From the IMG/VR virus record IMGVR_UViG_3300038299_000386, positions 2,373 to 66,372 of that record: a stretch of DNA of 64,000 nt; one strand, 5' to 3'. A program made the translations under genes and the position numbers. The notes below the pieces were generated by a model, which searched no databases, was not told the origin of the DNA, and worked only from the letters and a program-made list of their open reading frames with translations. Each line of letters starts with the position of its first letter. The first letter of the stretch is position 1. This DNA comes from a virus. Shown one piece after another: positions 1 through 63,706 of this stretch.

Positions 1-1392
1 GAGGACTGTTGCAGCATCGTTCAAAACAGATGATTGAACGATTCCGGTTTCCCGGTCCGGGTTGTTGACGTTGAGTAAGGTTGCATTCTCAAAGGCGATT
101 TCGTTTTCGAGAGCTTCTTTTTCTGCGTCGCTGGCAGTTTCCCTTACTACGGACAATTCGACGTTTTCATACGGCAAAATCAAGTCAAAGTCTTCTATTG
201 GTGGAAGTTCACCTTCATTGTCTACTCTCTCCCGGCCAAAAAGGAACTCGCCCCTGGTTCTCCCCAGTTGATCGAGTCTTTGTAGAAATTCTTCAGCCTG
301 TTCTTCGGTTCTGAAGGTCATAAGAGGGGTTTCTTCGTACCCATCTTCAGTTGTATAGGCTGCGGCAACGTGGTATCGGGCCAATTCCTCGGACACATTT
401 GCAAATCGCCCTTTTCCGGGTCCTTTAGTTATCTCAGTACCCCATCCGGTTAAGCCTGAAACTGTTTTCTTGGAGAGGTTGGGGTTTGTGCCCGACTCGT
501 AAAACTCCGCATCACCACTATCAAGAACATTTTCAACCAAAGGCCAACTCGATTCTATCGCATTCAAGTGTAAATACAAGTCTGTGTCTGCGGCAATGGC
601 CGAATTATCAACTACAGATTGTCTTTTTATGATTTCGTCGATATTAAGTTGGTCCAATTCATTGAATTTGTCAGCAATCATCGAATCAACAACTTCTTGT
701 TGTGATTTTGGCGGCATGTAAAACTCGTCATCCTCTCCGATAATTTCAATATTAAATTTGTCAAAGTCGCTGTTCATGATTACTTGATCAATTCTTCTAT
801 CTATTGGTATTCCGTCTTGATAAGTGTGTTTGGCTGACGTAGCGCCACGCCTCAAAGCAAGTCCTTCAAAAATGAACCTTTCCTCGTCTGTCAAATCATC
901 TTGGGTCAAAGTGCCTCCTTGAATTTGGGCGATTTTGAATTTTAGTTCATTGAGTCGGCCCGAGTTGTTCAAAACTTCAATTGGCCTACCGTTCTTGTCG
1001 TAGTATTGGGTTCTTCTCTTTTGGACTCCCTGCGCCTCTCTTAGCAAGCCTCCAGCCATTACTGGGGCAGTCCCAATCAATTCTGCTTGGCCGATCATGC
1101 GCATGAATTCATTTCTTTGTTGCTTCTCGTCAGACATCTTAGAATATGTATCGAGCCAGTCTTTCCTTGCCTCTCGTTTTGTTTTGTCATAGGACCTTTG
1201 GCCAACATATACTCCAGAGCCGCCGACCCAATTGACAACTCTTGCATTATTTCCCCTTTTTCTTAGGTGTTGGGCGTATCTTTGAGCGATAATTTTGGAC
1301 GTGCGGCTATCAATTTGCCGACCATTCAAATCGCGCTTGAATGAGCCGGCAAAAAAGTAAGGTCTACGGCTAAATTTGCGTATATTCTTCAT
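1..1392 (-). CDS. Tagged cargo protein, N-terminal basic tag domain; 3' end outside window (absent from ORF track)
   Basis: Manual translation of the 5' part from ATG 1392 (ATGA overlap with upstream stop): MKNIRKFSRRPYFF...IAQRYAQHLRKRGNNARVVNWVGGSGVYVGQRSYDK... Confidence 0.85.
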   Translation of the reverse strand, partial: MKNIRKFSRRPYFFAGSFKRDLNGRQIDSRTSKIIAQRYAQHLRKRGNNARVVNWVGGSGVYVGQRSYDKTKREARKDWLDTYSKMSDEKQQRNEFMRMIGQAELIGTAPVMAGGLLREAQGVQKRRTQYYDKNGRPIEVLNNSGRLNELKFKIAQIQGGTLTQDDLTDEERFIFEGLALRRGATSAKHTYQDGIPIDRRIDQVIMNSDFDKFNIEIIGEDDEFYMPPKSQQEVVDSMIADKFNELDQLNIDEIIKRQSVVDNSAIAADTDLYLHLNAIESSWPLVENVLDSGDAEFYESGTNPNLSKKTVSGLTGWGTEITKGPGKGRFANVSEELARYHVAAAYTTEDGYEETPLMTFRTEEQAEEFLQRLDQLGRTRGEFLFGRERVDNEGELPPIEDFDLILPYENVELSVVRETASDAEKEALENEIAFENATLLNVNNPDRETGIVQSSVLNDAATVL

Positions 1393-2798: not shown

Positions 2799-3728
2799 TC
2801 AAGCATTGTCTAATTGGAAGTCTGCCCACCCGGTTGCTATTTCTCCGGATTTGACTTCTTGAAACCCTGGCTTGGGTTTTGAACGTTGTTTCTGCATCCT
2901 TGAACCAATCTCGCCATCTGCGAATTGCCAGTAAACAGGGTTTTCGTTCTCGAAGACCATGTAGAGTTTAATTCCTTTTAGATTTTCCAAATTTGGGGTG
3001 TTTCTTCCAAGCATTACCAAAGCCAAACGTTGCATCATGTTCTTTGAAGCCTCATTATTTTGGTATTTAGCGTCCCCAACCGCTCCTGTAGCCAAAAGCC
3101 ATTGATTGAAGGTTGCTTTACTTGCTGAAGTCGGTAAACTGTTCAAAACATCAACTAATTCTTCACCATCTACAAATCTTGCATCGGTAATCTCCATCGC
3201 ATCTGGTTTCTTAGATCCAATCAAAGCCATACCGGTCTTCGAAGAGAAATCATCCTTGTAAGTCTGCATCAATTGAGATAATGCTTGCATTTCTTTGATG
3301 TCTGCAGACAGAGATTGAACCGGTACTGACTCGGGCATTCCCGGCATTTTGATGTCGTCAACACCCAGCAAAGGGCCCCACTTGAGGCCTCCAAGGATCT
3401 GTGCTCCGGTAGTAATCTTCCTCTTTTTAGGAATGCTGGGCATCCCGTTTTCTTCGAGGACTTTCTTTGTCGCTTCAACTGATTGCTTCGAAACACCACT
3501 TACCCCGCCGGCGACATATATTGCCGTCCAGCCAGAACCATTTACAACCCTGGCACGTAGTCCTTGATTCCTCAAAGTCAAAGCTCTTTGCCGTGCGAGA
3601 TTGTTTCTTTGCTCATAAGTGTAGAGTTCTTTGACAGAACCATCTTCGGCGATCTCTGCTGCTCGCAATGATGAACTTAGGCCGTAATCTTGGCCGGAAA
3701 ACCGCCGAGTTCTACCTGGCCCTCTCAT
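2799..3728 (-). CDS. Tagged cargo protein (N-terminal tag)
   Basis: 309 aa; RRFSGQDY...ARQRALTLRNQGLRARVVNGSGWTAIYV. Confidence 0.85.
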   Translation of the reverse strand: MRGPGRTRRFSGQDYGLSSSLRAAEIAEDGSVKELYTYEQRNNLARQRALTLRNQGLRARVVNGSGWTAIYVAGGVSGVSKQSVEATKKVLEENGMPSIPKKRKITTGAQILGGLKWGPLLGVDDIKMPGMPESVPVQSLSADIKEMQALSQLMQTYKDDFSSKTGMALIGSKKPDAMEITDARFVDGEELVDVLNSLPTSASKATFNQWLLATGAVGDAKYQNNEASKNMMQRLALVMLGRNTPNLENLKGIKLYMVFENENPVYWQFADGEIGSRMQKQRSKPKPGFQEVKSGEIATGWADFQLDNA

Positions 3729-9180: not shown

Positions 9181-10017
9181 TTACTGACGCTTCCGTGCGT
9201 CTTTCAATGCCCTGTCGTAAATGATGGCTCCAACGGTCGAGGGCACCACCATGTCTGGTTGCCAACCCTGTCCGTGTGAGGTTGGGTCGTAGTCTTTTGT
9301 TACCGGTGCAACCATGGTCGATGGCGAGAGTCTCGCCCTGGATGAGTTATCCCAATATACGCTCAAGCCACTGGGCTGTCGCATTTCTTTGCCTTGATGG
9401 TCGTTGATTCCTCCCCAGCCCACCTCTCTCATCGTCATGTAAGCGTTTATCGAATCAATGGCGTCTTCGTTTTTCTCAGCGTACTTCGAATTAAGTCGCA
9501 TGTCCGATTTGGTTGGTTTCTGTGATGGCCAATTTAGTTGGTCCTCTTTGGTTCCCCAGTGGGCTGTGAATGCTTTTTCTGCTTTGTTGAATTTTTGTCT
9601 CATTTCCGAGAAGGCATTATTCCGCCCCGCTCGCCAATTTTTGAGTTGCCCTTCACGACGTTTGTTCCGTGAAAGAACATCTGCAGACCATTCTTTAGGG
9701 CGATCCAATTCCTTTGCAACACCCTCATCAAAACCTGTGCCGTTGAACCTTGAATCCCACGAATACTTCTCCTTTGGTCGTAGGTAAAGCCCCCATCGCT
9801 GTCGACCGAGGATTGTGTCTGCCGGCAAAGGAAGTACGCGAGCATAAAATCCATTTTCTCTTGCACGTGCAGCCAATTTTGTGAGTTGGTTAGATTCTGG
9901 AATATTTCGCCTCTGGTTTTGATACACCATTCCGTCATCATGACGAACGGGCTTTCTATGGCTTATTCCAAAAAGTCGGAATTGTTGGCCTTCTATTTTC
10001 TTCCATCCTGAAGTCAT
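9181..10017 (-). CDS. Tagged cargo protein (N-terminal tag, FRLFG subfamily)
   Basis: 278 aa; QFRLFG...LAARARENGFYARVLP...RWGLYLRPK; tag similar to that of 58978..59718. Confidence 0.85.
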   Translation of the reverse strand: MTSGWKKIEGQQFRLFGISHRKPVRHDDGMVYQNQRRNIPESNQLTKLAARARENGFYARVLPLPADTILGRQRWGLYLRPKEKYSWDSRFNGTGFDEGVAKELDRPKEWSADVLSRNKRREGQLKNWRAGRNNAFSEMRQKFNKAEKAFTAHWGTKEDQLNWPSQKPTKSDMRLNSKYAEKNEDAIDSINAYMTMREVGWGGINDHQGKEMRQPSGLSVYWDNSSRARLSPSTMVAPVTKDYDPTSHGQGWQPDMVVPSTVGAIIYDRALKDARKRQ

Positions 10018-10035: not shown

Positions 10036-10081
10036 TTTTGATATGAAGCAACCGCAAGGAACAAAGTTAGACGCACAGTTT
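10036..10081 (-). promoter_or_regulatory. Conserved upstream element AAACTGTGC plus TGCGGTTGCTTCATATCAAAA
   Basis: Second copy of the 9114-9159 element; motif 56 nt from ATG 10017. Confidence 0.7.
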
Positions 10082-11195
10082 ATCTATTTGCAACTGGTGC
10101 GTGGACGTAATTTACCCATTTAGTTTTTAGAGGTAAGGTTCGGACTTGGAGGCCATAATTTCTTAGGAATCGGGCATGCTCTTGCGCTTGTTTTTTTGTG
10201 ATGGCTGATTGTTGTCGCCTTGCAATGTATTTCTTACCATTGATTGTCCTTACTCTTCTTCGAGTAGAGCTGTTGGGTTCAATCCGGCTTCTTGAATAAG
10301 ACCTAATCCGTTTTAGCCCGCCTGGCAGCGAGGGTGACTCTTTGCCTGTGTCATAGTCAAGTATTCTTAACTTCGGAACCTCAACTTGATTCATTATCCA
10401 TTGATCATCAATGAGTCTGGGCTTCTGAATTATAGCATTGGAAGGGGTTTTTGCAAAGTTTCCAACGTGGACGTCTTGGGATTTGATCCAATTCTTAGCA
10501 ACTTCTTCTGGGAATCCAGCGCCGATCATACGCTGTTCCATCGACCTCTTCCATTCTCGCATCGCTGCTCTATAATCCAATTCGACTGCTGCGACGGCAT
10601 CTCGATATTCCGCAGATTTATTGAAGCCAAGATCAACATAACCTACGCCTTTCGCATCTTCAAGCATTTTTTCAACACCCAAATATTCTTGGTACTCGTC
10701 TGAATCACTTATTTCTTCTACGTAATCCCACATCGATAGCGGGTCGAGCAATTCGTTTCTCTCAATACGCTCTTGAATGACTGCGCCTGGCCCTGCTGGA
10801 ATAGCGGGAACAATCATATCTTTCAATCCAGCTTCTTCTAAAATCGCTGAAACTGTGTCTTCATAGAATCCTGTTTCGCTTGGGGGAGAGCCATCAACTT
10901 TACTTGGTTTACTGAATAAACCATTGCCCATGTATTTTACTCTCCAATCTCCATCAACACCATACCTGCTGACCTTGAGGACAGAATCTTCCAATTTACC
11001 CGGTCTTTCTGCGGTTGGAGCGTAGACATTTCTGCTCGCACCCCGTGTAATGAATTCGACATCGGCGTCATAATTTTCAGAGATGTTATCAACAATTTTT
11101 ATTTGTTCGGATAGATCGTATCTCCAAGGGTCAATGTCAGCGTTTCTTTGACGGAGTTTCTCTGGATTGACCAAAACATTGTATCGCCGAGGCAT
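10080..11195 (-). CDS. Protein-kinase-like fold protein with C-terminal tag domain
   Basis: RGASRNVY (Gly-loop), VLKV (ATP Lys), VIQERI, DVHVGN (catalytic loop), ILDY; C-term RTINGKKY...ARFLRNYGLQVRTLP; start refined to ATG 11195 (TGATG overlap). Confidence 0.65.
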   Translation of the reverse strand: MPRRYNVLVNPEKLRQRNADIDPWRYDLSEQIKIVDNISENYDADVEFITRGASRNVYAPTAERPGKLEDSVLKVSRYGVDGDWRVKYMGNGLFSKPSKVDGSPPSETGFYEDTVSAILEEAGLKDMIVPAIPAGPGAVIQERIERNELLDPLSMWDYVEEISDSDEYQEYLGVEKMLEDAKGVGYVDLGFNKSAEYRDAVAAVELDYRAAMREWKRSMEQRMIGAGFPEEVAKNWIKSQDVHVGNFAKTPSNAIIQKPRLIDDQWIMNQVEVPKLRILDYDTGKESPSLPGGLKRIRSYSRSRIEPNSSTRRRVRTINGKKYIARRQQSAITKKQAQEHARFLRNYGLQVRTLPLKTKWVNYVHAPVANR

Positions 11196-11344
11196 CAGCA
11201 CACCTCGCAAGGGCATTCTTCGGGGTGATCCTCGAGCATGACTTTGTCTTGTAGCCAAAGAATCCAGTGGGGTTTGCACATCATTGCATAACTTTCAGTA
11301 TCAGGGTGTATTTTTTTCTGACAGCTTACTATCTGGCAAATCAT
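11195..11344 (-). CDS. Small Cys/His-rich (Zn-finger-like) protein, 49 aa
   Basis: MICQIVSC...CKPH...HPEECPCEVC; GAGGTGA RBS; translational coupling downstream. Confidence 0.6.
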   Translation of the reverse strand: MICQIVSCQKKIHPDTESYAMMCKPHWILWLQDKVMLEDHPEECPCEVC

Positions 11345-11348
11345 TCGC

Positions 11349-44266: not shown

Positions 44267-44270
44267 ATTT

Positions 44271-51853: not shown

Positions 51854-51855
51854 CT

Positions 51856-52634: not shown

Positions 52635-54758
52635 TCACGGTACTTTTTTTGCTACGTAAATTCGATGCCCACCTTTAGCAGAAATGACCCTTGCATAAAG
52701 GCCTCTTTGCTTGGCGTGACTGGCGAGGGCTTTCGCATGATGTTTTTTCAACAGCCTGTTAGACCCATGATACCTTTTTCCCGATAGATTACGATAATAT
52801 GTGCGGCGGGGTTGCGTGCGGCTCGGATGGTCATACGTTATCCAGGGGTTGTTATAATCTGCAACAGCTTCGGGATTCCCACTTATTCTGGCAGGGTCTC
52901 GAAGATCGGTCATGGTTGTTAGGGCTGGTACGTTGCCCATAATCGATTTTACTACAGAGTCTACATCGAAGCCGCCAACCGGCTGTCCTTCCTCTATTTG
53001 AGCGAGCGCTACCGCATCCTTTTCTCTCCTTACCTCTCTCGAGGCCATCAAGATTGAACGCAACATGATTTGATATTTTCGCCCTGTTTCTGTATCTGCT
53101 ATTTCCGGCAAATTCCCGTAGCGTCCATCATGATAAACGAGGTTAGGCGCCGAACCGCCCAACCCTACTTGCAAGTCTTTGGGTTCAACCAAACCCTGTG
53201 CAGATGGATCATACGCCAATTCATAGAGAAAGTCTTCGTTGGAACCCAAGTAATCAACCCAGGTGCTTTCAATAAATTCTGCATTCTGGCGATACCGAGA
53301 GGCCGTTTCCAATATTATGTTTGACAATGCGGCCTCTCCAATTGAAAACCTCCCCTGAAGGCCTTCCGTCCCGTCCACAGTTCTTCGAAATACGTCATAT
53401 TCATCCTCGGTCAAAGCGTTGATTATCCCGAAAACCTCTTGATCATCAAGTTCGGCGGCAGATTTAACCACCGGATCATCTGTTAGTGACGGGGGGATTG
53501 CTGCACGAGTTATTCTTCGTATTTCGTTGTAATCCTCGGTACTTGGAATTCTCATCGGATGAGCATATAGAAAATCTTGAGAGAGGTAGGGCCCATACCC
53601 GAGGCTTCCACCATCTGAATTGGAAAAGGCTGCTCGCGGGTCCTTCATCCACAAGCGCTCAATCGGTTCTACCGTTCCTCCCGAACGATAAAGGCGGTCA
53701 AAGATACTGATTGGGTCATAGAAGTAATCCTCATCTGAAGCCCAGGAGAACATCAATTTATTCTGGGCTGATATAGATGGCTCATAGGGATAGAGTTTCA
53801 TGTCTTGTTGCCCTAACCTCATGAGGTAATCTTCAATATCCCCTCTCTTGGCCTCTATGGTGTTGTAAAAGTCAGCATAGGGTATTTTGCCCTCACTGTC
53901 TGGTAGCAGCAACCAACCATCATAACCATACCTGTTTCTGGTATAATTCTCACGTATGAGGTTGTTTCCCGCTAAGCCAGAATCGGGGTCGTAGGGTGTT
54001 GTCTCGGAGACATAGACAATTTCTTCTGTAATTGGATCGGCAAGAACTAAGTTGAAACCATACGAATATATGTTATCCGAATCCATAGTTTCTTTCGGTG
54101 CAGTCACCAAAGAATCTATGTCAAACCTGTCGTTAAAGCGGTCACCTACATCTGGCATCCCCTCCTCGTTCCAACTGTTGTAAATACCAACCAAATATTG
54201 TGTTGAATCATTCGGTTGGGGAAACCTGCGATTGTAGCCTTGTTCCCGAAGCTTCTTGAGAAGTTCTTGATCGAAAGCATTGTTGGCTCTCATCTTTCTA
54301 ATTTTTTGTTCATAATCTTTAATGTCGGATTCCGTCTTTGATATTCCGCTTTTTAGATTGTTCGTGGCATTTTGAATCCGATTGTTTCCAAACGGCTTCA
54401 TTGCTGATTGCGAACGTATGAATGATTTCTTGGTGCGGTTGCCCGTCCTCCATACCGTGAGTAATGCGCCGTTTCTCCTTGTAGATTTAGCAGTAGTGCC
54501 AGAATCCATAATCATCCCCTCGGAACTCAATGAATTGATGAGCGCACCCAGCACCCTTCGGTTATCCGGCTCTTGTATAGTGCCCTGTTGTATTGCTGGC
54601 TCAAGCACCTCCCGCCAAATATCGTCTGTCGTGAACAACGTATTTCCCAAGACGTAATCGGAAATCAAGCCTTGTGCCTTTCCACCGGATCTCCAATCCG
54701 CTTTAGCCGAAGCCTGGGCATCGAGCGCTCGTCTAATTCCTCTTTCAGAAGGCGTCAT
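52635..54758 (-). CDS. Tagged cargo protein (N-terminal phage wHTH-like domain, C-terminal tag)
   Basis: FTTDDIW...RVLGALI...VWR; GYNRR linker; RTYYRNLSGKRY...ASHAKQRGLYARVISAKGGHRIYV. Confidence 0.9.
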   Translation of the reverse strand: MTPSERGIRRALDAQASAKADWRSGGKAQGLISDYVLGNTLFTTDDIWREVLEPAIQQGTIQEPDNRRVLGALINSLSSEGMIMDSGTTAKSTRRNGALLTVWRTGNRTKKSFIRSQSAMKPFGNNRIQNATNNLKSGISKTESDIKDYEQKIRKMRANNAFDQELLKKLREQGYNRRFPQPNDSTQYLVGIYNSWNEEGMPDVGDRFNDRFDIDSLVTAPKETMDSDNIYSYGFNLVLADPITEEIVYVSETTPYDPDSGLAGNNLIRENYTRNRYGYDGWLLLPDSEGKIPYADFYNTIEAKRGDIEDYLMRLGQQDMKLYPYEPSISAQNKLMFSWASDEDYFYDPISIFDRLYRSGGTVEPIERLWMKDPRAAFSNSDGGSLGYGPYLSQDFLYAHPMRIPSTEDYNEIRRITRAAIPPSLTDDPVVKSAAELDDQEVFGIINALTEDEYDVFRRTVDGTEGLQGRFSIGEAALSNIILETASRYRQNAEFIESTWVDYLGSNEDFLYELAYDPSAQGLVEPKDLQVGLGGSAPNLVYHDGRYGNLPEIADTETGRKYQIMLRSILMASREVRREKDAVALAQIEEGQPVGGFDVDSVVKSIMGNVPALTTMTDLRDPARISGNPEAVADYNNPWITYDHPSRTQPRRTYYRNLSGKRYHGSNRLLKKHHAKALASHAKQRGLYARVISAKGGHRIYVAKKVP

Positions 54759-56437
54759 CGACGCACCTCACTCATGTAAGTTCGCCCTGGTCTTGGACCG
54801 GTTCCGCGGTTCAAAAATTGATTGATAGTCATCCCTTGTTTTGCTGCTTCTTCAGTAAGTATTCTGTTTGCCTCTTGGAGTTTGACTTGCATTTCGAAAG
54901 GCAATGTAACTTCTTGAGTTTCTTCGTTATACATCACATTTTCGTTAGCAATGTTTTGCATGAAATTCATTGCATCATTTAGGCTCATTTGTTCAGCCCG
55001 TTCTAACATTGTGACCCTCATTTTCATTTTTTCAATATCTTCTTTCGGGATGAAACGGTTGGCATACACTTCATGCACGTCGCTTTGCCTAATTGATTGC
55101 TGGGCGGTTCCGCGCTTTCGAGCGTTTAGAAGTTGCTCCATAGCTTGAAATTGATAAAAGGCGAAATCGGGCATCAAACCGGATTTTTCTTGGTCGATTG
55201 TGATTGACATGTCTGAAGGTCCCTCTCTCTCCCGATACACTTTGCCAGCGTTGGGTCCGATCCTTTTCATGTAAAAATCTCCAGGTTTGCCGGATGAATC
55301 CATGATGATTCCGTCAAGATTTGGTACTTCGACGCTTTCTCCATGAACTCGAACTCTCTTGTTGTATCGCCTTCGCTCGTAGGCCTTTTTGATTGACTCA
55401 AGGGAGATGACGTCCATACTTCCATCTCTCATGGCATTTAGCCAAGAATCCGTTATCTTGCGGTCAATCTTTGCTTCCACAGTTGCCCCGCCTATTCCGG
55501 GGAACGTGATCATTACTTGATCGACCTTGTCAAGAGGCTCTACGCGAATCTTTGGTTCTTCAGTTACTGAAGAGGGGTCGATATAACTCTCCCATTCGGT
55601 GTAAATAAGGGGTGACTCGGACATTAGAGGATACTTTATCGAAGCGAGAAGTGAATGTTCGGACATGCCATTGCTCCTCAAATACAATACCAATGATTCT
55701 TGGACTGCTTGGTCAATAGAATCTAACCAAGTTGAGTAAGCCTGACTAATGATGCTTTGCGGCTTGTTTATTTCTGCAATGAGTTCTTCATCAGTCATGC
55801 TTCTGTATTCCAAGAGTAGCGGATTGTCTGATGATTGTATGAATGATTTTGTGCTTTGAAACGCCTTATTCCTAACTTGCCCCTGTAATCGAGAAATTAC
55901 GGTCACACCATCCTGGTATTGATAACTGTAAATCTCGGCCCATTGTTCTTCGGTGAGGTTGCTTTTCCCTAATTCAAATCCTTGCATATTCATATTTTGC
56001 ATGGATTGCTTGCCCAATTCGGCAAGTTCTTGGCTATGCAGGTCGATTTGGTCGGTGAACTCTTTTATCTCTTTAATTTGTTCGCGAGCTATCGCCTTTT
56101 GATTCTCGTTCAGATTTGGCGCCAATTCCACTACCCGCTTTTTCGTCATACGGACAAATTCTTGAGGGAATGCTTTTGTCAATTCCTTGTTGCTGTTGAG
56201 AATCGCCCCTAATGCAACAGGGAATACCTCTGTTCGCATTGGATCTGTCTCGGGAATCGGACGATTATATCTCCGGCGAACAAAAAGAGAACTGGAGTTA
56301 GCATTCTGTATCACTCTTGCGTTCCACCCATTTTTTCTTGCTAAGTCGGCGAACCCTTGCAACTTTCGTGTTGCTGTCTTGGGCGCATTTAATGCCCTGT
56401 TGTAAGTCTTCTTCTCAAATCGTCGTGTAGGCTTCAT
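54755..56437 (-). CDS. Tagged cargo protein (N-terminal tag)
   Basis: RRFEKKTY...ADLARKNGWNARVIQ; RRYNR and RRYNK linkers. Confidence 0.9.
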   Translation of the reverse strand: MKPTRRFEKKTYNRALNAPKTATRKLQGFADLARKNGWNARVIQNANSSSLFVRRRYNRPIPETDPMRTEVFPVALGAILNSNKELTKAFPQEFVRMTKKRVVELAPNLNENQKAIAREQIKEIKEFTDQIDLHSQELAELGKQSMQNMNMQGFELGKSNLTEEQWAEIYSYQYQDGVTVISRLQGQVRNKAFQSTKSFIQSSDNPLLLEYRSMTDEELIAEINKPQSIISQAYSTWLDSIDQAVQESLVLYLRSNGMSEHSLLASIKYPLMSESPLIYTEWESYIDPSSVTEEPKIRVEPLDKVDQVMITFPGIGGATVEAKIDRKITDSWLNAMRDGSMDVISLESIKKAYERRRYNKRVRVHGESVEVPNLDGIIMDSSGKPGDFYMKRIGPNAGKVYREREGPSDMSITIDQEKSGLMPDFAFYQFQAMEQLLNARKRGTAQQSIRQSDVHEVYANRFIPKEDIEKMKMRVTMLERAEQMSLNDAMNFMQNIANENVMYNEETQEVTLPFEMQVKLQEANRILTEEAAKQGMTINQFLNRGTGPRPGRTYMSEVRR

Positions 56438-56450: not shown

Positions 56451-57416
56451 TTACTTGTATTTGGATTTGCGTGGTTTCACTTTCGGCCTTCTCAGCAGCC
56501 AAAGCGCCTTTGGATTAGCAGATGACGGGTAAACTTCGTTGTCCTTTGAAACGCGTAAGGATTGGACGAGTGCAGTTGTTTTCTCTTCGGTTTGATCCAA
56601 AGCCCAATTGACACCATCTTTGATTCCAACGTCCAATACGTTTCGGCGTACTAATTTGGCGCCGACAAATCCACCTGCTACGGCGAGAGGAACCCAGGGC
56701 ATTGCTGCAAGACCTGCTGAAGTAAGGGCGATGCCTCCAACGGCACCGGTGGTTGCCCCAGCAATCTCCAATGAGTTGTATCGCAGAACCTCTCTACCGG
56801 GAACGGGCAATTTGTAGTCTTCGACCGCAGCCTCATATTTCGAGGCTTTCAATTTCTCACGTTTGATTTCAAGCTCTTCCTCGGTTTCCTTGTCCTTCTT
56901 TTCCTGTTTAGCAAATGCTACTGCAGATTCTCGGTTTTTTGAACTAAGTTTTTCTGCAATTATTTGTGCCTCAGTCATCGATTTACCTTTCACTAATGCT
57001 TGGTCCCTGTAATCGATGAAGTCCTCGACCTGCTCGAGATCTCTTTTGTCGCCCTTTGAACGAGAGCGACGCCTAAAGATACCCCTTCGTGGACCGGAAT
57101 TTTTGATTCTCCCCGAGGATTCATATTCTTCAACCAGGCTGAGTATTGTTCTTTTCCTCTTCTTAGGATAAGCTCTCGGCTGGATAGAAAGGTGTAGATC
57201 GCTGGTGCTCATCCTAACGCTCTGTGGCCGATGATAGTATAATTGGTAACCTACAAGTCTTTTATTGCCCTTAACGGTCTTTTCAACAGGGATGACTCTG
57301 GCTTTCAGGCCATTTGCACGAGACATCTTTGCCGCCAATTGTGCTTTTTCTTTGGTTTGAAGTTCACCAATGGGCGTGTACAGGCGGTTGTCGAACTTGC
57401 GTGAACCCCGCCTCAT
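56451..57416 (-). CDS. Tagged cargo protein (N-terminal tag, glycine-rich hydrophobic hairpin)
   Basis: RKFDNRLY...AAKMSRANGLKARVIP...GYQLYY; AGATTGAVGGIAL...VAGGFVGA; AAAGTGTGC 57 nt upstream. Confidence 0.88.
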   Translation of the reverse strand: MRRGSRKFDNRLYTPIGELQTKEKAQLAAKMSRANGLKARVIPVEKTVKGNKRLVGYQLYYHRPQSVRMSTSDLHLSIQPRAYPKKRKRTILSLVEEYESSGRIKNSGPRRGIFRRRSRSKGDKRDLEQVEDFIDYRDQALVKGKSMTEAQIIAEKLSSKNRESAVAFAKQEKKDKETEEELEIKREKLKASKYEAAVEDYKLPVPGREVLRYNSLEIAGATTGAVGGIALTSAGLAAMPWVPLAVAGGFVGAKLVRRNVLDVGIKDGVNWALDQTEEKTTALVQSLRVSKDNEVYPSSANPKALWLLRRPKVKPRKSKYK

Positions 57417-57480: not shown

Positions 57481-58974
57481 TCAATCAATATTCCATATCG
57501 CCGAATCTGTTGGTTCTCCGTCGTAAAATGCTTGAAGGAAGTTTCCAGCGAGTTGCTGAATTCCGGCTGCCTTATCTTTCATGAAAGATGGATCTGTTGA
57601 TTCGTTACCTTCACCAATCAATCCATACGGAATAACTTCGGCAAGTGGTTCGTCTGTAATCAAATCAAATCCTGTGTCGAGGAAGTCTGTTGCTACTCCC
57701 GACAACCCGGTTGCCCCAGTATCTGTTCGGTATCTTACCAAATTAGGCGCTTTGAGCCAACTTACGCCCTGTAAGTTGAGAAAATCATAACCGATGCCCC
57801 TTTCGAACATTCGCTTAGTTTCTTCTGCAAGCAAAGGAAACATTCGCATGATCTCCGAAGGAGGCCGGCCTCCCATTGGGTCGCGCCTCACCCACGCTTC
57901 CCTTCCGCCGAACAATAGCGTTAAGCCTCTATTTGTTTTATCCAATTCCTCTTGGTCAGGAAAAACCTCATCACCATACTCCAGTGGCTCTGGTTGAGCA
58001 TATCTGGTCAAGGCATTTCCAAACCGTGTATCACTGCTTGAAGTTTTTAGTAGAGCTTGTCGGATAAATTCATCCACTTGGTATTCAGGAAGATAACTGT
58101 CAATCTGCGGCAACCAGCGACGTAGCATCCTTGCCCTCGCATCCAAATCACCCGCCAAAAACACGTTGTCAGTCACTAACATTTCAGAATCAAAACCGGC
58201 TTCTATCGGCCTATCTTTTGCGATTAGGTCGTTTTCGAACAAAATATATCGGTCTTCGGAATCCAAATCGTCAGATATTGCATAGACCATTTGTTGCCCA
58301 TCAACATTCAACCTTCCAGTGACGTCTCGGGCTAAGAATTTTCCTTGCCATGTGGGATTCATTGTTTCAAGTTCATCATACATATCCTCATTTTGTGCAT
58401 GCCATAATTCTCCATTTGATTTTCGTTCCGATCCGTACCACTTACCAATGGCTGAATCAGAATTTACATCAAAACCCAAATCCTTCAAATGCTTTTTAGC
58501 GATGTTGCTCGGCATCAAACCAACTCCCATAAGCCCAATATTTTCATTTTTCAAAACCCCATCCTGAGTGGAGTCTTCTTTGTCGACGAAACCGATTGCA
58601 ACCCATCTTAGGTCGTCGGATTTTTTGTAAGATGTGTTTTTCCAATCGTAAAAATCCTGTAAGACCTTGAAAACTCGGGGTGTGAAATTTCTTTCATCCT
58701 CAAGTCCAGCATTTGAGGGGTTAGGCATCATCCTTTCAGAGAACCAAAAACCGCCGGCAGCACCTGGCAACGCCTTTTCCACATCATCAGTCATTTTCCG
58801 ACGATCATATCTTTTGCTCCCGACGTAAATCCTCGAATTGCCGTCTGAAGTTCGTACGACCATCGAGTTGTAGCCCCTTTGACGTATTGCCTCAGCGAGG
58901 AACCTGGCTTTCGGAACGCTAATTTTGTGGGGCGAACCTACATAACGTCCGCTTTTGGTGTTTCTGTAAAACAA
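57481..58974 (-). CDS. Tagged cargo protein (N-terminal tag)
   Basis: YRNTKSGRYVG...AEAIRQRGYNSMVV...RIYVGSKRYDRR. Confidence 0.88.
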   Translation of the reverse strand: MFYRNTKSGRYVGSPHKISVPKARFLAEAIRQRGYNSMVVRTSDGNSRIYVGSKRYDRRKMTDDVEKALPGAAGGFWFSERMMPNPSNAGLEDERNFTPRVFKVLQDFYDWKNTSYKKSDDLRWVAIGFVDKEDSTQDGVLKNENIGLMGVGLMPSNIAKKHLKDLGFDVNSDSAIGKWYGSERKSNGELWHAQNEDMYDELETMNPTWQGKFLARDVTGRLNVDGQQMVYAISDDLDSEDRYILFENDLIAKDRPIEAGFDSEMLVTDNVFLAGDLDARARMLRRWLPQIDSYLPEYQVDEFIRQALLKTSSSDTRFGNALTRYAQPEPLEYGDEVFPDQEELDKTNRGLTLLFGGREAWVRRDPMGGRPPSEIMRMFPLLAEETKRMFERGIGYDFLNLQGVSWLKAPNLVRYRTDTGATGLSGVATDFLDTGFDLITDEPLAEVIPYGLIGEGNESTDPSFMKDKAAGIQQLAGNFLQAFYDGEPTDSAIWNID

Positions 58975-58977: not shown

Positions 58978-59718
58978 TCAACCTCGCTTTCTGTAGAATA
59001 TTCGGTGTGATTTCACAGTGTTGGCGGAGTTGCCTCCATCAAAAGTTGGCCCCAGCGTCTTTTTTGGCATCGATATTTGAGTGTCCCATATATCGAATCT
59101 TCTCATCCCATTCGGGATTAAGTTATGCTTCGACCACGTAATTCCGCCGTCATCAATAGCTTGTTCAAGTATTTCTGAACCCTGTTCGGGGCGAAGTGAG
59201 AACTTAACCCTGGTTGGCCTCCCCATGCTCGGGCGGTATAACTTCGAATTCAATTCCAATTCGCGCTGATCAAACGGCTCTGCTTTGAATTTGAAAGGAG
59301 TCGATTTAGATTTCAACCAACTATCATTGGTTAATTTTGCAGTCCCAATTACTTGGTAGTGGCCCTTATTGTCATCAAAGTGTGCCTGTGCCCAAGAGTA
59401 GTCAATTTTTTCATGCTTCTTAGGATGGATGAAAAGTCCATAACGCGGGGTTTGGTGCAGCCTATCTCTCGCCATAGGCACTATTCTTGCGTAATATGAA
59501 CCGTTTTGTTCTCCACCCATGTAGGGCGCCCGCATAAGGGCGGCGACTGCCCTCAATCTCTCCTTGTCAGATGAAACTCCGAAGAGTCTGAATGATCTCT
59601 GGCCGTCTTGAGTCTTCATCTTGCGAAAAAGAACATCGTCAGGCCAATTTCTCGTCCTTATGCTTCCAGCATTTCTGCTTTCATAGGGTCCAACAAAATT
59701 TGGGCTTTGGCGAGTCAT
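58978..59718 (-). CDS. Tagged cargo protein (FRLFG subfamily tag)
   Basis: SFRLFG...YYARIVPM...RYGLFIHPK. Confidence 0.85.
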   Translation of the reverse strand: MTRQSPNFVGPYESRNAGSIRTRNWPDDVLFRKMKTQDGQRSFRLFGVSSDKERLRAVAALMRAPYMGGEQNGSYYARIVPMARDRLHQTPRYGLFIHPKKHEKIDYSWAQAHFDDNKGHYQVIGTAKLTNDSWLKSKSTPFKFKAEPFDQRELELNSKLYRPSMGRPTRVKFSLRPEQGSEILEQAIDDGGITWSKHNLIPNGMRRFDIWDTQISMPKKTLGPTFDGGNSANTVKSHRIFYRKRG

Positions 59719-61400
59719 CTCACTCGCCTCATGGGGCCGACATAAATTCTTGAGCCAGCGTTCGTGCGAATCACTCTAACGTTGCGACCTGTTTGCCTAC
59801 GGAGTTGTTGCGCCCATGCTCGAGCCTGGGGGTGGGTGAATTTTCTTGGAGTGCCCCTGAACTGTTTGCCTTTTATCGTCCTTTGAAGCGTCGGCACGGC
59901 CTTTGAAGTAAGTGGTAGCACCATATTAGGCAGATTGTATGTTCTTGCCTTGTAGGAGCCTCTGTCGTATTCCCTGTCGCTTGGATAGGTGTAAGATGCA
60001 CCACGTTCCTTGGCGACGTCTTGGATCACACTTAATGTCTCAAAATCACTTCTATCTTGTGCCTTTTTCAAACCTTCTTCGTTAATCTTAACGTCGATGG
60101 AAGCAACTAATTCATCTCGTATTTTGCCAGACTGGGTGAAAATTTCTTCTAATGAGTTGATCGCTTCAAAGCCACCTAGGGCCATTAAATTGTCTCGCAG
60201 TGATTTTTCTTCGACGAATAGTTCCGAAGTGCCTTCTCTTTCCGACTTTTGCCTCAGCCAGTCCTCTACGGCCAAAACATCCGGTCCGAGCAACTTCCAT
60301 TCTGCAACCCAACCCAGACCTGCCACTGGTAAAACCTTGTAAGGAAGCGGAACCGTCTCGGTTTCGAAATTGTCAGACCATAGTTTCCCTGCAGCCGTAA
60401 AGTCCCATTCTTCAGGGCCGTTCGGTAAAAGGTCGATTTCGGGGCCACCATACCATGAGTCGTGGATGTAGTCTGTGTTCCCTGGAACAGTCAAAGCCGA
60501 TTCCGGGTTTTCAGAACCACGAAAAAAGCGGCCAGAAGACCTTAATTGTGTAATCTCACTGCCGCTTGGTACGATTTGTCCTTTAGCAACCATCACCAAT
60601 TCTTCTATAAATTGACTATCTCCTTGATATGGCGCCATAGCAACGCCGGCTCCAATCGCAAGCCTTTCATTTTCATCTCGAATAAAAGCACCCCCAAACA
60701 ACCCAGGGTTTGTTTGAGATGGATCAATGTCATCAACTGAATCGGTAAGTGACTTGCCTTTTTCTCTATTGAAAGGTCGAGAGTTGAATGCACCCATCCT
60801 TGCAGTAGTTCTAATTTCAGCGATTGATTCTTCAATATCACGATCTACATCGATTGCTTTTTCAGTTTCAGTCACGGATTCTTTCCTGAAATATTTATTG
60901 GGTTCTTCTTGCTCTTTTATTCGATTCATTAGATGCATCATTTCGTGAACCACAACATCTTCAAGAATAAACCCCTTATTGGCGGCTGTTTCAGGGTCAA
61001 TTAGCACCTGCTTACCAATATTCTGCCCTGCTATGTCTGGAGGGAGTTTTTGTATCCGTAAGTCAATTCCAAATTCCTCAAATTTTTTCCTTTCTTCGGG
61101 GCTGAAATAGACCTCAATCGTTTCAAGGACGTTCTCCCGGCCTTTTTCAAAATCCGCCGTTGAGATTTCTGCGTTGTTTGATACCTTCATCCTGTTGTAG
61201 ATCCGTGGCGATTTTACTTCATCTGATATAATCATCTTAGCAATCTGTTGAGAGTTATGCGTTTTGTTCCGAATCATTACTGACGCCCCTTCAGCAACCT
61301 TTCTTTGATACTTGTTTCCATTAAGAAGCATGTCATCAAGTATTTGAGCAAGTTCGACTGAACCTTGCTTACCCATTGCAACTTGCTTCAAATCGGCCAT
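59715..61400 (-). CDS. HExxH zinc-metallopeptidase-domain protein with C-terminal tag
   Basis: VVVHEMMHL followed by EESIAE; domain bounded by RIYNR and RPFNR; tag RTIKGKQF...AQQLRRQTGRNVRVI...RIYVG. Confidence 0.75.
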   Translation of the reverse strand: MADLKQVAMGKQGSVELAQILDDMLLNGNKYQRKVAEGASVMIRNKTHNSQQIAKMIISDEVKSPRIYNRMKVSNNAEISTADFEKGRENVLETIEVYFSPEERKKFEEFGIDLRIQKLPPDIAGQNIGKQVLIDPETAANKGFILEDVVVHEMMHLMNRIKEQEEPNKYFRKESVTETEKAIDVDRDIEESIAEIRTTARMGAFNSRPFNREKGKSLTDSVDDIDPSQTNPGLFGGAFIRDENERLAIGAGVAMAPYQGDSQFIEELVMVAKGQIVPSGSEITQLRSSGRFFRGSENPESALTVPGNTDYIHDSWYGGPEIDLLPNGPEEWDFTAAGKLWSDNFETETVPLPYKVLPVAGLGWVAEWKLLGPDVLAVEDWLRQKSEREGTSELFVEEKSLRDNLMALGGFEAINSLEEIFTQSGKIRDELVASIDVKINEEGLKKAQDRSDFETLSVIQDVAKERGASYTYPSDREYDRGSYKARTYNLPNMVLPLTSKAVPTLQRTIKGKQFRGTPRKFTHPQARAWAQQLRRQTGRNVRVIRTNAGSRIYVGPMRRVR

Positions 61401-61401
61401 T

Positions 61402-61836
61402 TTACCAAACCCTTGCGCAATCATCGACCACTACTGGGTCTTCGGTTTCAATCCAAATGCTCGCCCCGCAACTCAATGGATCGCAAGGCTTGTAAACAAT
61501 TTTTGAATTTCCTTCAACCTTGACGTCAGAAGCCCTTATGCTCCCTTTTGAGGTTTGGATTGTTATTGGTGGCTTGACATTGTCGGGATTTTTCTTATTC
61601 CATCCAATCATGTGCCTGTTAACGTGGATTTGTTTTTTGCTTGGCCTACCTTTTCGGGTGAGTCTGCAACTCCGATAAACCGCATATTTACCATTAGCGT
61701 GGCGTATTACTCGGGCATTTATCCCAAACGCTCGATGTCGCTTGGCGACGGTGTCGGCTCTCCTTTTAGTCAAGCTATGATCCGACAAAATATGCCTTTT
61801 CTTGTTTGAGCCGATGTAACGAATTTGTCGAACCAT
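61402..61836 (-). CDS. Tag domain fused to a conserved marine-phage hypothetical domain
   Basis: AKRHRAFGINARVIRHANGKYAVY; KQIHVNRH...PPITI...PLSCGASIWIET. Confidence 0.85.
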   Translation of the reverse strand: MVRQIRYIGSNKKRHILSDHSLTKRRADTVAKRHRAFGINARVIRHANGKYAVYRSCRLTRKGRPSKKQIHVNRHMIGWNKKNPDNVKPPITIQTSKGSIRASDVKVEGNSKIVYKPCDPLSCGASIWIETEDPVVVDDCARVW

Positions 61837-61840: not shown

Positions 61841-63706
61841 TCAAATCTCCGTGTAGTCTACAACGTGCTTATTTCGGGACATATCCCAAAGAACGTCGGC
61901 ATAACGAATCTGTGTGTTCCCGTCAATCTCGCCATTTTCTTGGTCTGCACGGCCGATGACATAATCGCTCTGTGCGCCGAGTGATTTGATTGTACCCAAG
62001 GCATCCTCGAAGGATGGTATCCAGGTCGAAACGGGTTCTGTTGTGATGGAATCATAAATTCTGAAGTGCCAGCCTTTCAGAATAGCCTCTATTGCTGATG
62101 CGTTTGCGCCCTCCTCTTGAGCCAATTTAGCCATTGTCATCTTTGCTTGGGCGTTGGAGGCACCGAAGTCAAATCCAAGGTCTGCGAGGTTATCCCTGCG
62201 GGAATCTTGGACTGAGGATTGCGGTAAAAGCCAATTGGAAAGGTATTGTCGTGGTAATCTGCTGGGGTCATTGACCTTTTCACCGTCCAAATATAGTTGG
62301 AATTCACCCGCTTCAAGGCGGTAATCCTCGGCTCTCCCGTCGACTTCCCAACCTGCCCAATCGCCTGTTTCTGTAATTGTCATATATCCTCCGATGACGG
62401 CTACACCAGGTGCGAGTTGATCGTGCTCTTGGTAACCTTCCTGTGAAAAAGTCTCATAGGTTGACAACTTCTTACTTGCATTAAGAGCCTTCCTTAGAGC
62501 ATCAAAATACTCTGCTTCATTGTTTTCATCTGAGTAATACTTTCCACCAAGAAGCTCGCCAACCGAATTCACAATCAAAAATGCTGGCTTCTTATCAAAT
62601 CGAATACTTTCTCCGAATCTTCTCGGATTGAAGGTCCAGAATCCAGAAGGTGCGCCGTCCGGCAGTTTTGGTTGGTTTGCAATCCCCAATCGTGGATTCA
62701 AAGTTGAATCAGATAATACGTCGCGGTCGAATGTCTTCCCGCCCCATTGAAGTCGTTCATTACCAAGTTGGTCCCCGAAAAATGCATTATCCATTTCGTC
62801 AGAAAATATGCCCTTTAGGATGTCATCGATGGAATCTCCTTGTTCTTCGGACTTTTGATCCCTTGCGGCAACAGCGAAAACCTCGCCGGCTTCTGCTTTA
62901 GTTTGCCTTACATTTTCCGGCAACAATAAGCCGCTTCCTACTTCAAAGGTTTCAGACATCATGCGGTCAATCATGGCAAATATCTCATCGTCGGTCGTGT
63001 CTTGTTCACTGCCTCCGTCGATGCCCATAAGTTCGTAGAAGTCTATTTCATCTGCTGACTTCATGATTTGTCCGCCCATTCCATCAGATACTTCTGTGAA
63101 ATCAAAGTCCAATCCCCCTCCGGATTCTGCTTTGAATTCCTCTCGAGATTTGGCTTTGTAGCCTAAATCTTCGCTCATATCGGTCGAAGCGAACAGATCA
63201 TCAAGCATTGCTGCAGCGGTGAACTGCTGTTCTTGCTTTATCGCCTCATTAACCACTGCGGCTTGTGGATCTACAAGTGCTTGGAATGCGTTTATGGCAT
63301 CAGTCCCGCCAAGCACCTGAATGTTGGACTTCCAATCCAGGTCGTTTCTATACCCCGGTTGCCTTCTCATCCAATCAACAAGTGCAGGTTGATCAATTCC
63401 TCCGGGGCGTTCAAATGTTCTCCAAGGAAAACGAATAGCGTTGTAGGTGCGGTTGACATTGCGGAAGTTTCGGTTTCTTTTTCCGAAGTAAATTGCTGTC
63501 TTGTTGATTGATTTTAATTTGACAGTTCTTGCGTTTATCCCGATTTTACGCATTCTGGATGCAAGCACTTGGGCATCGGCTTTGTTTGTAGCGAGGCCTG
63601 AAAAATTGTATCGGGAGCCGTCAAACTTCCTTGTTCCGCTAAATCTTCTCCTCTGAAGAGTTCGCATGTCATTAGCACTTACTATCGGGTATCTGTTTTT
63701 ACTCAT
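61841..63706 (-). CDS. Tagged cargo protein (N-terminal tag, highly acidic body)
   Basis: RKFDGSRY...ASRMRKIGINARTV...AIYFG; RTYN linker; ATG 63706 after GAGGCGA. Confidence 0.9.
   Translation of the reverse strand: MSKNRYPIVSANDMRTLQRRRFSGTRKFDGSRYNFSGLATNKADAQVLASRMRKIGINARTVKLKSINKTAIYFGKRNRNFRNVNRTYNAIRFPWRTFERPGGIDQPALVDWMRRQPGYRNDLDWKSNIQVLGGTDAINAFQALVDPQAAVVNEAIKQEQQFTAAAMLDDLFASTDMSEDLGYKAKSREEFKAESGGGLDFDFTEVSDGMGGQIMKSADEIDFYELMGIDGGSEQDTTDDEIFAMIDRMMSETFEVGSGLLLPENVRQTKAEAGEVFAVAARDQKSEEQGDSIDDILKGIFSDEMDNAFFGDQLGNERLQWGGKTFDRDVLSDSTLNPRLGIANQPKLPDGAPSGFWTFNPRRFGESIRFDKKPAFLIVNSVGELLGGKYYSDENNEAEYFDALRKALNASKKLSTYETFSQEGYQEHDQLAPGVAVIGGYMTITETGDWAGWEVDGRAEDYRLEAGEFQLYLDGEKVNDPSRLPRQYLSNWLLPQSSVQDSRRDNLADLGFDFGASNAQAKMTMAKLAQEEGANASAIEAILKGWHFRIYDSITTEPVSTWIPSFEDALGTIKSLGAQSDYVIGRADQENGEIDGNTQIRYADVLWDMSRNKHVVDYTEI

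Follow-up and report, generated by a model that had tools for sequence, protein, structure and literature searches.

The locus studied here raises the question of why a short peptide motif, R-x-Y-N-R and close variants of it, recurs in so many proteins of a single virus. The window, meaning the whole stretch of DNA that was analysed (64,000 nucleotides), spans bases 2373-66372 of the 66,372-bp virus record IMGVR_UViG_3300038299_000386 (G000), that is, nearly the whole record, which represents an uncultured marine virus. A first-pass annotation of this DNA had proposed that R-x-Y-[N/S/D]-R, lying at domain junctions, is a processing site at which a protease releases cargo modules. In our analysis the motif is strongly enriched, restricted to proteins that share a tag of about 50 residues, and placed on both sides of a zincin-like metallopeptidase module in the open reading frame (ORF) 59715-61424, an arrangement that could reflect processing by the virus's own peptidase. 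No published description of the tag or of the [RK]-x-Y-N motif was found in the literature searched.

Enrichment of the motif and its restriction to tagged proteins

The motif was counted in the 61 ORFs of the window (20,061 amino acids, aa) and compared with 2000 shuffles performed within each protein, with its composition kept. R.YNR occurred 7 times with 0.18 expected, R.Y[NSD]R 10 times with 0.61 expected, and R.YN 19 times with 2.41 expected, counts that none of the 2000 shuffles reached; in the same set, RRYNR was found 3 times with 0.02 expected. The dipeptide YN by itself was mildly raised (52 versus 39.0, reached in 57 of 2000 shuffles). Beside most motif instances lies a recurring stretch of about 50 residues (R-x-[IF]-[ND]-G-K-x-[FY] ... 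K..A...A..LR..G..ARVIP...G..VY.G), called the tag in the following, whose profile converges on 22 of the 67 ORFs of the contig, one third of them, 21 of these being in the window. In its form [RK].Y[ND][RKH], the motif is restricted to these proteins, with 14 instances (1.15 expected) in the 22 tagged ORFs of G000 (9,985 aa) versus 0 (0.44 expected) in the 45 untagged ones (11,158 aa). Both the excess over shuffled sequences and the difference between tagged and untagged ORFs, named as checks in the first-pass annotation, were thus found, and every instance that it had listed is present in its ORF. Missing from that list were RSYDK (ORF starting at 1392), KTYNR (ORF 54755-56437), RKYNY (ORF 48109-49851) and RRYNR (ORF 44271-44996).

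Through two of the proteins, three relatives of the virus were found:

G001: complete (100%), 63,413 bp, with direct terminal repeats
G002: 65,449 bp, likewise 100% complete and with direct terminal repeats
G003: 34,575 bp, fragment, 54% complete

Their proteins share 25-80% amino-acid identity with those of the window, and shuffling of modules is visible among them. In G001, [RK].Y[ND][RK] is found 9 times with 1.55 expected (0 of 1000 shuffles); by class, there are 7 instances in tagged ORFs (0.93 expected) and 3 in untagged ones (0.76 expected). G002 is enriched only for the core [RK].YN (10 versus 2.25 in tagged ORFs), and its fifth position is occupied by A, F, S, V or Y, while the fragment G003 shows no enrichment. 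Over 64 non-redundant sites, the consensus reads [R 77%/K 23%]-[R/T/K]-Y-N-[R 30%, K 16%, S 9%, H 8%]; the flanks are linker-like, and P stands at position -1 in 20% of the sites, a 4.5-fold enrichment. The core conserved across the relatives is [RK]-x-Y-N, and R at position 5 is not kept; the originally proposed R-x-Y-[N/S/D]-R stands as an enriched form in G000.

The codons used differ from instance to instance: R is encoded by AGA, AGG, CGG, CGA, CGC and CGT, Y by TAC (9) and TAT (4), and N by AAT (5) and AAC (5). Such variation points to selection at the protein level. A cause at the DNA level, be it a repeat, a promoter-like TATAAT or recombination microhomology, is ruled out by the same variation.

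A zincin-like module bracketed by the motif

ORF 59715-61424 is the place where the first-pass annotation had put a peptidase. Its features, all on the minus strand, are:

61206-61424, minus: four-helix N-terminal module (aa 1-73) ending in SP-RIYNR, with helices 3-16, 22-34, 38-53 and 58-66 in the AlphaFold2 model
61191-61205, minus: RIYNR (aa 74-78), joint between the helical and zincin modules, predicted local distance difference test (pLDDT) below 50 at aa 75-77
60780-61190, minus: zincin-like metallopeptidase module (aa 79-215), with HEMMH at aa 160-164 (window 60933-60947)
60765-60779, minus: RPFNR (aa 216-220), joint at the C-terminal end of the zincin, model disordered from aa 217
59931-59975, minus: REYDR (aa 484) and RTYNL (aa 494), preceding the C-terminal tag by 17-27 aa
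59736-59885, minus: C-terminal tag, hidden Markov model (HMM) independent E-value (i-E) 1.4e-17

The region that this ORF shares with its 17 homologues comprises only the first ~215 residues. All 17 aligned rows have H160, E161 and H164; equally invariant are E171, E182, E198, E199 and E203, five downstream glutamates that are candidates for the third zinc ligand. The AlphaFold2 model, built on aa 1-260 with the 17-row alignment, is well predicted over aa 81-213 (pLDDT about 86-94 for aa 81-170) and consists of a helix at 89-118, three strands within 121-142, and helices at 152-173 and 188-213, with the HExxH on helix 152-173 as the active-site helix. The dip in confidence at aa 67-80 holds RIYNR, and RPFNR sits where the disorder begins. 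When residues 75-221 of the model were compared with all representatives of the PDB by VIA-align, most of the top rows were zincin catalytic domains, namely M1 aminopeptidases (Z 9.1, 120-122 residues aligned, root-mean-square deviation 3.1-3.4), anthrax lethal factor (9.0), Wss1 (8.3) and lugdulysin (8.1), where Z values of 8-9 are only moderately above background. Foldseek gave no match at E <= 0.001 for the model, nearly all of its top rows being zincins or HExxH domains, and a profile search of the PDB with the zincin returned only chance-level rows.

Libraries of known families do not claim this module. Pfam assigned it 0 families even at E 5 and PHROGs none, and for its homologues the Pfam scores were below threshold (Peptidase_M91 16.6 versus 25, SprT-like 13.2 versus 25.6 and PhageMetallopep 12.8 versus 23.7 bits). 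As modelled, aa 79-215 represent a zincin-like metallopeptidase by fold and motif that is not a member of a curated family, and the peptidase of the first-pass annotation is retained in this form.

The motif borders the module on both sides in the homologues as well. Upstream, SP-R-[ILM]-Y-N-x is present in 14 of the 14 homologues that hold the region; downstream, 14 of 17 have [RK][RK]YN[RSTH], with as variants RPFNR (G000 and its 97% identical copy P0016), RAFSR and RRYQK. Homology ends exactly at the downstream motif, and the modules beyond it differ. Three homologues start at the residue right after RIYNR, and four others carry insertions of 150-170 aa after the first motif that end in R-x-F-[NADK]. 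In G001 and G002, the zincin ORFs start at the start of the module and end in KRYSA and KRYNR, respectively. The helical module is also found elsewhere, ending in RRYNK or RKAYNR, with other partners in G001_35927 and joined directly to a tag in G002_753. Closer to the C-terminal tag, REYDR and RTYNL are kept in P0016 and not in P0080 (43% identical). Each of G000, G001 and G002 has one zincin module, in a tagged protein. Bracketing of the peptidase by the motif on both sides is as expected for a self-excising polyprotein protease.

The shared tag

The tag is N-terminal, C-terminal or occasionally internal, and the tagged proteins are mosaic "beads-on-a-string" of 140-740 aa. Its cores are strongly basic, with a mean net charge of +8.2 over the 22 tags. 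In an AlphaFold2 model of the first 95 residues of ORF 46643-47965, based on a 21-row alignment, the tag forms a beta-beta-alpha-beta-beta fold of about 50 aa (pLDDT 88-96). Its profile found 1072 representative matches at E <= 0.001 among 1.84 billion proteins. They include many stand-alone proteins of 50-70 aa and many longer ones, of 300-900 aa, in which the tag is terminal; a word-index search started from a stand-alone tag returned 2 proteins.

Among named domains, SPOR (PF05036) comes closest to the tag, on weak evidence. SPOR matches were obtained in Pfam for 3 of 10 tag relatives scanned, 8 of which were stand-alone, and only P0001, a 143-aa protein with two tag copies, reached the cut-off (21.5 versus 21 bits), while P0117 (18.3) and P0089 (14.8) stayed below it; the tagged proteins of the window itself gave no SPOR match in Pfam. 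The SPOR domain of CwlC is among the weak Foldseek rows of the tag (probability 0.72), and the Atlas gave "hypothetical protein, Uroviricota" together with a SPOR lead. The likeness concerns the helix-strand-strand core pattern A..lA..LR..G..ARV....G..VY. The match, however, covers only half of the domain length, SPOR being a ~70-aa beta-alpha-beta-beta-alpha-beta domain resembling that of ribonucleoproteins whereas the tag model has 50 aa, and no link of the tag to peptidoglycan is evident. No Foldseek match to the tag was found at E <= 0.001 and no significant one in the PDB, where the best row of the profile search was a designed protein (E 0.0041).

Further tag-like sequences were noted in and near the window. 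ORF 39211-41214 has a degenerate second, internal copy at aa 200-265 (window ~40420-40620, minus strand, HMM i-E 0.055), consisting of the helix and the ARI strand followed by an insertion, and relative P0003 has it too. The N-terminal region of ORF 58978-59718 (minus strand) looks by eye like a tag with a long insertion, although the tag profile gave no match there; the tagged set may number 23 ORFs if it is counted. To the left of the window, a 161-aa tagged ORF (G000:C1:1053-1541, minus strand) has the tag followed directly by PTYNRK. Six tags in the window have no adjacent motif:

3510-3629, minus: tag of ORF 2799-3728
9787-9951, minus: tag of ORF 9181-10017
28184-28300, plus: tag of ORF 27167-28456
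41433-41561, minus: tag of ORF 41211-42890
57282-57401, minus: tag of ORF 56451-57416
61672-61821, minus: tag of ORF 61402-61836

The motif at the borders of the tag

Windows at the junctions between tag and neighbouring cargo hold the motif in 9 of 29 cases in G000 (2.24 expected, 0 of 2000 shuffles) and in 4 of 19 in G002 (0.34 expected, 0 of 2000). The corresponding values for G001 (2 of 23, 0.78 expected, 357 of 2000) and G003 (1 of 13, 0.2 expected, 362 of 2000) are not significant. Beyond these genomes, 150 listed tag representatives were inspected, from which 15 close to G000 or G001 were taken out: of the 22 N-terminal tags that are followed by 30 aa or more, 8 have [RK].Y[ND] within 10 aa past the tag, with only 7 further hits in the next 190 aa. 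Stand-alone tag proteins of 50-70 aa are without the motif. In the window, the instances beside tags or in tag-bearing proteins, with one in an untagged ORF placed last, are:

47900-47914, minus: RRYNH (aa 18), after the Cys-rich leader and before the tag of ORF 46643-47965, without secondary structure in the AlphaFold2 model (pLDDT 61-64)
47723-47875, minus: N-terminal tag (aa 31-81) of ORF 46643-47965, HMM i-E 8.5e-18
47702-47716, minus: RRYNR (aa 84), 2 aa past this tag, pLDDT 59-75; RKYNR in P0169 (62% identical)
47003-47017, minus: NTYNR (aa 317) of ORF 46643-47965; TGDINTYNRK identical in P0169
46724-46750, minus: RDYNR-TYNN tandem (aa 406-414) near the C-terminus of ORF 46643-47965; RKYSRPRTYNN in P0169, with indels just upstream
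56276-56431, minus: N-terminal tag of ORF 54755-56437, with KTYNR (56396-56410) in its first hairpin
56261-56275, minus: RRYNR (aa 55), directly past this tag, likewise in P0035
39421-39435, minus: RNYNR (aa 594), abutting the C-terminal tag (39277-39429) of ORF 39211-41214
58801-58815, minus: KRYDR (aa 54), 1 aa past the N-terminal tag (58819-58971) of ORF 57481-58974
1183-1197, minus: RSYDK, 1 aa past the N-terminal tag (1201-1341) of the ORF starting at 1392, which the edge of the window truncates
2601-2615, minus: PSYNR(R), 4 aa past the N-terminal tag (2625-2780) of ORF 1389-2789
63437-63451, minus: RTYNA, 10 aa past the N-terminal tag (63482-63634) of ORF 61841-63727
48229-48243, minus: RKYNY, where the C-terminal tag (48118-48246) of ORF 48109-49851 begins
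10290-10304, minus: RSYSR, 16 aa before the C-terminal tag (10101-10256) of ORF 10080-11279
43025-43039, minus: KAYAR, where the ligase OB domain of ORF 42857-44293 meets the C-terminal tag (42872-43024)
37084-37098, plus: KAYNR, after the Cys-rich leader of ORF 37024-37446 (tag 37189-37341)
44415-44528, minus: internal tag of ORF 44271-44996, with RRYNR (44478-44492) in its helix-loop and not at a junction
45524-45538, plus: RRYSR (aa 85) of the untagged ORF 45272-45907, where the tag profile has no match

At the place of RSYDK in the ORF starting at 1392, P0091 has RKYNK and P0133 has RHYNK. The two motifs that flank the tag core of ORF 46643-47965, RRYNH and RRYNR, are unstructured in the model (pLDDT about 56-75). 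Over both AlphaFold2 models, then, the motifs lie in low-confidence linkers just outside folded domains, so that the overlay on domain boundaries suggested in the first-pass annotation agrees with its proposal. Its statement that the motif sits at domain junctions is sustained by the junction windows of G000, but not for all instances, RRYNR of ORF 44271-44996 and KTYNR of ORF 54755-56437 lying inside the tag. The idea that the motif is an integral strand of the tag fold was rejected on two grounds, the lack of structure in the flanking motifs and the stand-alone tags devoid of the motif; a weaker form of it survives in the in-register R-x-Y-x-R edge of C-terminal tags.

Two observations concern individual carriers of the tag. 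The ATP-dependent DNA ligase encoded by ORF 42857-44293 (minus strand; Pfam WGR, DNA_ligase_A_M and DNA_ligase_OB_2), with its C-terminal tag, is apart from the zincin the sole tagged protein of clear enzymatic identity. Furthermore, each genome has one protein with a Cys-rich leader, C-x1-2-C-x2-C followed within 2-10 aa by [RK]-x-[YF]-[NSDG] (8 matches among 466 proteins). Its carriers include the ORF with window 47915-47965 (minus strand), G001_53372, G002_2498, G003_26687, P0017, P0020 and P0028, and it looks like a small zinc-knuckle-like N-terminal piece placed before the motif or the tag.

Joints far from the tag

The 22 tagged proteins were compared by BLAST with the proteins of G001-G003, with those of four smaller related loci (L006-L009) and with all fetched metagenomic proteins. 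This gave 153 alignment ends at a distance of more than 25 aa from any tag, of which 42 fell within 8 aa of a tag-distant motif, compared with 7.2 +/- 6.5 for randomly placed motifs (0 of 1000), and a cluster of ends lies at a motif in 5 of the 9 proteins that have tag-distant motifs. Besides ORF 59715-61424, such clusters were observed in four proteins, whose motifs are listed here with others that lie away from tags:

55358-55372, minus: RRYNK (aa 356), internal joint of ORF 54755-56437, four alignment ends clustering at aa 356
40231-40245, minus: RIYNR (aa 324), internal joint of ORF 39211-41214, end clusters at aa 317 and 331
51833-51847, minus: RKYNY (aa 6), N-terminus of ORF 49844-51862, kept at aa 13 of G001_49531
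51374-51388, minus: RVFNR of ORF 49844-51862 (C-terminal tag 49862-50014), adjoined by the end cluster at aa 155
50846-50860, minus: REYNP of ORF 49844-51862
11175-11189, minus: RRYNV near the N-terminus of ORF 10080-11279, end cluster at aa 31
54228-54242, minus: QGYNR of ORF 52635-54758, adjoined by the end cluster at aa 178; C-terminal tag 52650-52799, preceded by RRTYYRN

Several of these joints show what is exchanged. The module past RRYNK of ORF 54755-56437 (module B, RVRVHGESV...) has an 80% identical counterpart in G001_35927; what precedes it there is another N-terminal piece, namely the helical module ending in RRYNK at aa 71. In P0003, the equivalent of RIYNR of ORF 39211-41214 directly abuts the C-terminal tag, and at this place G000 has an inserted module of ~270 aa that ends in RNYNR. 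Insertions and swaps fall exactly at motifs, and the inserts end in another R-x-[YF]-[ND]. Likewise, P0169, the orthologue of ORF 46643-47965, keeps R[RK]YNR, NTYNRK and RTYNN, while RDYNR is replaced by RKYSR with indels beside it; its N-terminal part runs from the Cys-rich leader through RSYNR and an insertion of ~70 aa to a degenerate GRVYAH.

What the motif may do

The reading that we favour, tentatively and at slightly less than an even chance, is that the motif is a proteolytic processing site cut by the virus's own zincin. The tag would address mosaic precursors to one place, such as the particle or the DNA, or elsewhere, and [RK]-x-Y-N-x (R-x-Y-N-R in G000, often with P just before it) would be the joint signal between tag and neighbour and between module and module, situated in flexible linkers. 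The tagged zincin (aa 79-215 of ORF 59715-61424) would first excise itself at its flanking motifs and would then release other modules from their tags, the cut presumably falling after N or after position 5. That the bond at the motif is cut, and that it is cut by this zincin, we infer.

Several points weigh against this reading. The enrichment is uneven, the junctions of G001 being not significant, G003 showing none and position 5 of G002 not being basic. Several C-terminal tags are preceded by R-x-Y-[YF]-R-N and not by R-x-Y-N, a sequence that resembles the in-register edge of the tag, and the first strand of the tag, R-x-[FI]-[ND]-G, itself resembles the motif, so part of the signal may be derived from the tag. 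ORF 59715-61424 supplies 33 of the 42 alignment ends near motifs, homologues having been fetched for this one protein and being mutually related, while about 16 of 24 end clusters far from tags are at no motif, which means that not every joint has one. Moreover, the AlphaFold2 alignments are shallow (17-21 rows), the zincin stays below every Pfam threshold, and to our knowledge no known zincin is Asn- or Tyr-directed in this manner. With no virion genes recognised, "cargo" and capsid targeting are a guess: scans with Pfam or PHROGs, which covered the tagged ORFs and 23 of the 45 untagged ORFs, recognised no capsid, portal, terminase or prohead protease, absence from these libraries not being proof, and the view of the proteins as capsid cargo found no backing.

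The motif could alternatively be a short linear docking motif that sits uncleaved in linkers and binds the tag, in a multivalent network of ~20 proteins, or else a component of the particle or of the portal, a host factor or nucleic acid. This alternative, already named in the first-pass annotation, we regard as unlikely, though worth keeping in view. Placement in low-confidence linkers, several copies per protein and occurrence only in tag-bearing proteins would all suit it, as would Arg and Tyr side chains beside a basic tag (+8.2), a combination apt for binding nucleic acid or peptides. A docking motif, however, need not coincide with the ends of homology or with the ORF starts of relatives, AlphaFold2 packed neither flanking motif onto the tag in cis (weak evidence), and the two-sided bracketing of the peptidase is better explained by processing. 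A complex prediction pairing the tag alignment with aa 306-345 of ORF 39211-41214 (score 0.01, mark 0.32) neither supports nor opposes binding between tag and motif. A similarly low probability is given to the motif being a structural cap or evolutionary joint, the edge of the tag and of a few portable modules that was spread by duplication and shuffling and has no separate biochemical role. Such an origin would agree with the R-x-Y-x-R edge of C-terminal tags and with the first strand of the tag, with the helical module always ending in SPR-x-YN wherever it is fused, with the swapping of modules at motif points and with the unevenness among relatives. Against it, codons are not kept, so that DNA microhomology is not what is conserved; the motif recurs beside unrelated modules (the zincin C-terminus, module A of ORF 54755-56437, the C-terminus of ORF 46643-47965) and is kept in orthologues despite indels in the linkers; and stand-alone tags fold without it.

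We find it very improbable that the motif is a site of modification or covalent linkage, whether through Tyr or Arg modification or through an Asn-based isopeptide or self-cleavage. The kept residues are indeed Y and N with a basic residue at -2, and Asn-dependent autocleavage and Lys-Asn crosslinks exist in other viral proteins; Asn-lyase chemistry, however, normally needs a folded context and not a linker, and the Pfam and PHROGs scans found no kinase, transferase or crosslink-type fold among the ORFs of the contig that they covered. Practically no weight is left for chance or composition in R-, Y- and N-rich proteins. The tagged proteins are basic and the earlier list of patterns was permissive, but an artefact of composition is excluded by the within-protein shuffles (0 of 2000) and by conservation of the motif at aligned positions in relatives.

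It is quite possible, although we would stop short of calling it probable, that in a family of uncultured marine viruses with genomes of ~65 kb one third of the proteome arises as tagged mosaic precursors, in which a basic, SPOR-like tag addresses ~20 proteins to one place and a single tagged zincin cuts them and itself at [RK]-x-Y-N. Protease type, Tyr/Asn-directed site and tag would then be unlike those of all virion and polyprotein protease systems characterised so far. Should the joints prove to be cut, a zincin of the polyvalent-protein type (see below) would for the first time have an explicit recognition motif, and the long-standing prediction that such peptidases dissect mosaic effectors could be tested simply in vitro on a defined substrate. 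Cleavage at the joints would also show how widespread dark-matter marine viruses organise ~20 proteins without assigned function, with an address tag, portable modules and a common cut site. Motif and tag together provide a practical rule for splitting the ORFs into functional units for structure prediction and annotation.

Comparison with known systems

In phage T4, a capsid-targeting sequence is removed by gp21, which cuts after L/I-x-E, and in phiKZ gp175 processes head and inner-body proteins at S/A/G-x-E. Both resemble the scheme considered here in having a terminal targeting element on unrelated proteins followed by a short removal site, with several sites per protein possible. They differ in that the element is a peptide of 10 aa there and a folded tag of 50 aa here, N- or C-terminal, and in that the protease is of the assemblin/HK97 serine type with an x-x-E site, whereas the candidate here is a zincin with [RK]-x-Y-N, in a genome with no recognised capsid genes. 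The analogy to core maturation in adenovirus, poxvirus and phiKZ drawn in the first-pass annotation is therefore kept as a functional one only, since type of protease and site differ. Picornavirus 3C and alphavirus nsP2 are polyprotein proteases flanked by their own sites, and here too the protease is bracketed by the same short motif that separates other modules; these, however, are cysteine or serine proteases with different sites, acting on a single polyprotein of eukaryotic RNA viruses.

Zincin metallopeptidase domains have been described as a hub of the polyvalent proteins of phages and plasmids, which they are predicted to process (Iyer, Burroughs, Anand, de Souza and Aravind 2017, PMC5512222). 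In the part of that paper covered, the likeness extends to mosaic multi-module proteins of a mobile element with an HExxH zincin fused in, to a zincin whose best structural likeness is to lethal-factor-type and other zincins, and to a peptidase predicted to cut the polypeptide into functional units. There, however, one giant protein is involved, whereas here the modules are spread over ~20 medium-sized proteins with a common 50-aa tag; a joint motif is visible here, while in the same part of the paper no cleavage motif was found defined. The present genomes have one zincin each, and beyond DNA ligase and GP88 most of the modules are without a known family. As in polyvalent proteins, shuffling of unrelated domains between relatives is seen among G000, G001, G002 and the metagenomic homologues, and a zincin metallopeptidase is fused within the set in G000, G001 and G002; as for anti-host effectors delivered with the DNA, the only recognisable tagged proteins are the DNA ligase and GP88. 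By analogy, the scheme would work like the tag-plus-protease maturation of T4 and phiKZ and like polyvalent processing, and would differ from them in tag, protease class, site and architecture.

The virus and other genes of the window

The GC content of the window is 44-48%, and no match to it at the DNA level was found in the GenBank phage collection. In the part of the magrovirus and Satyavativiridae literature covered (including PMC13108676), this virus group is not described. Pfam and PHROGs recognise little of its proteins, namely the DNA ligase with WGR, PAPS reductase, GP88, DUF932, DUF6884, TSP3 repeats and a weak bacteriorhodopsin-like match, two of which are placed as follows:

19831-20577: PAPS reductase (Pfam/PHROGs)
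27167-28456, plus: GP88 (Pfam/PHROGs), a tagged ORF

As to the host, the source name of P0165, a homologue of the zincin protein, is a metagenome-assembled genome of "Candidatus Poseidoniaceae archaeon", and the tagged proteins P0151-P0153 come from TARA fractions of 0.1-0.22 um; a marine group II archaeon is a possible host.

The most conserved protein of the group is that of ORF 25236-26588 (plus strand), with 64-67% identity to six viral loci. It has no match in Pfam or PHROGs, while Atlas features suggest a Zot/AAA-type P-loop NTPase (score 0.95), and it may be a packaging or assembly ATPase. ORF 28440-29351 (plus strand, 303 aa) matches Bac_rhodopsin in Pfam over aa 23-177 (29.1 bits versus a cut-off of 24.6, E 8.4e-7) and, weakly, Bax1-I, and its G001 homologue is 33% identical; it may be a multi-pass membrane, rhodopsin-like protein. 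In ORF 11349-12674 (minus strand), which contains TSP3 (thrombospondin type 3, calcium-binding) repeats, long frames are open on both strands, with 11506-12729 (plus), 11729-12571 (minus) and 11267-11758 (plus) overlapping it, and this is probably an effect of repeat composition. Finally, in ORF 49844-51862 the N-terminal RKYNY is followed by a long stretch of low complexity (aa 10-140, window 51440-51840, minus strand) in which S, T, G, P and N abound, and the neighbouring ORF 51856-52509 (minus strand, 217 aa) is Gly/Ala-rich with hydrophobic stretches.

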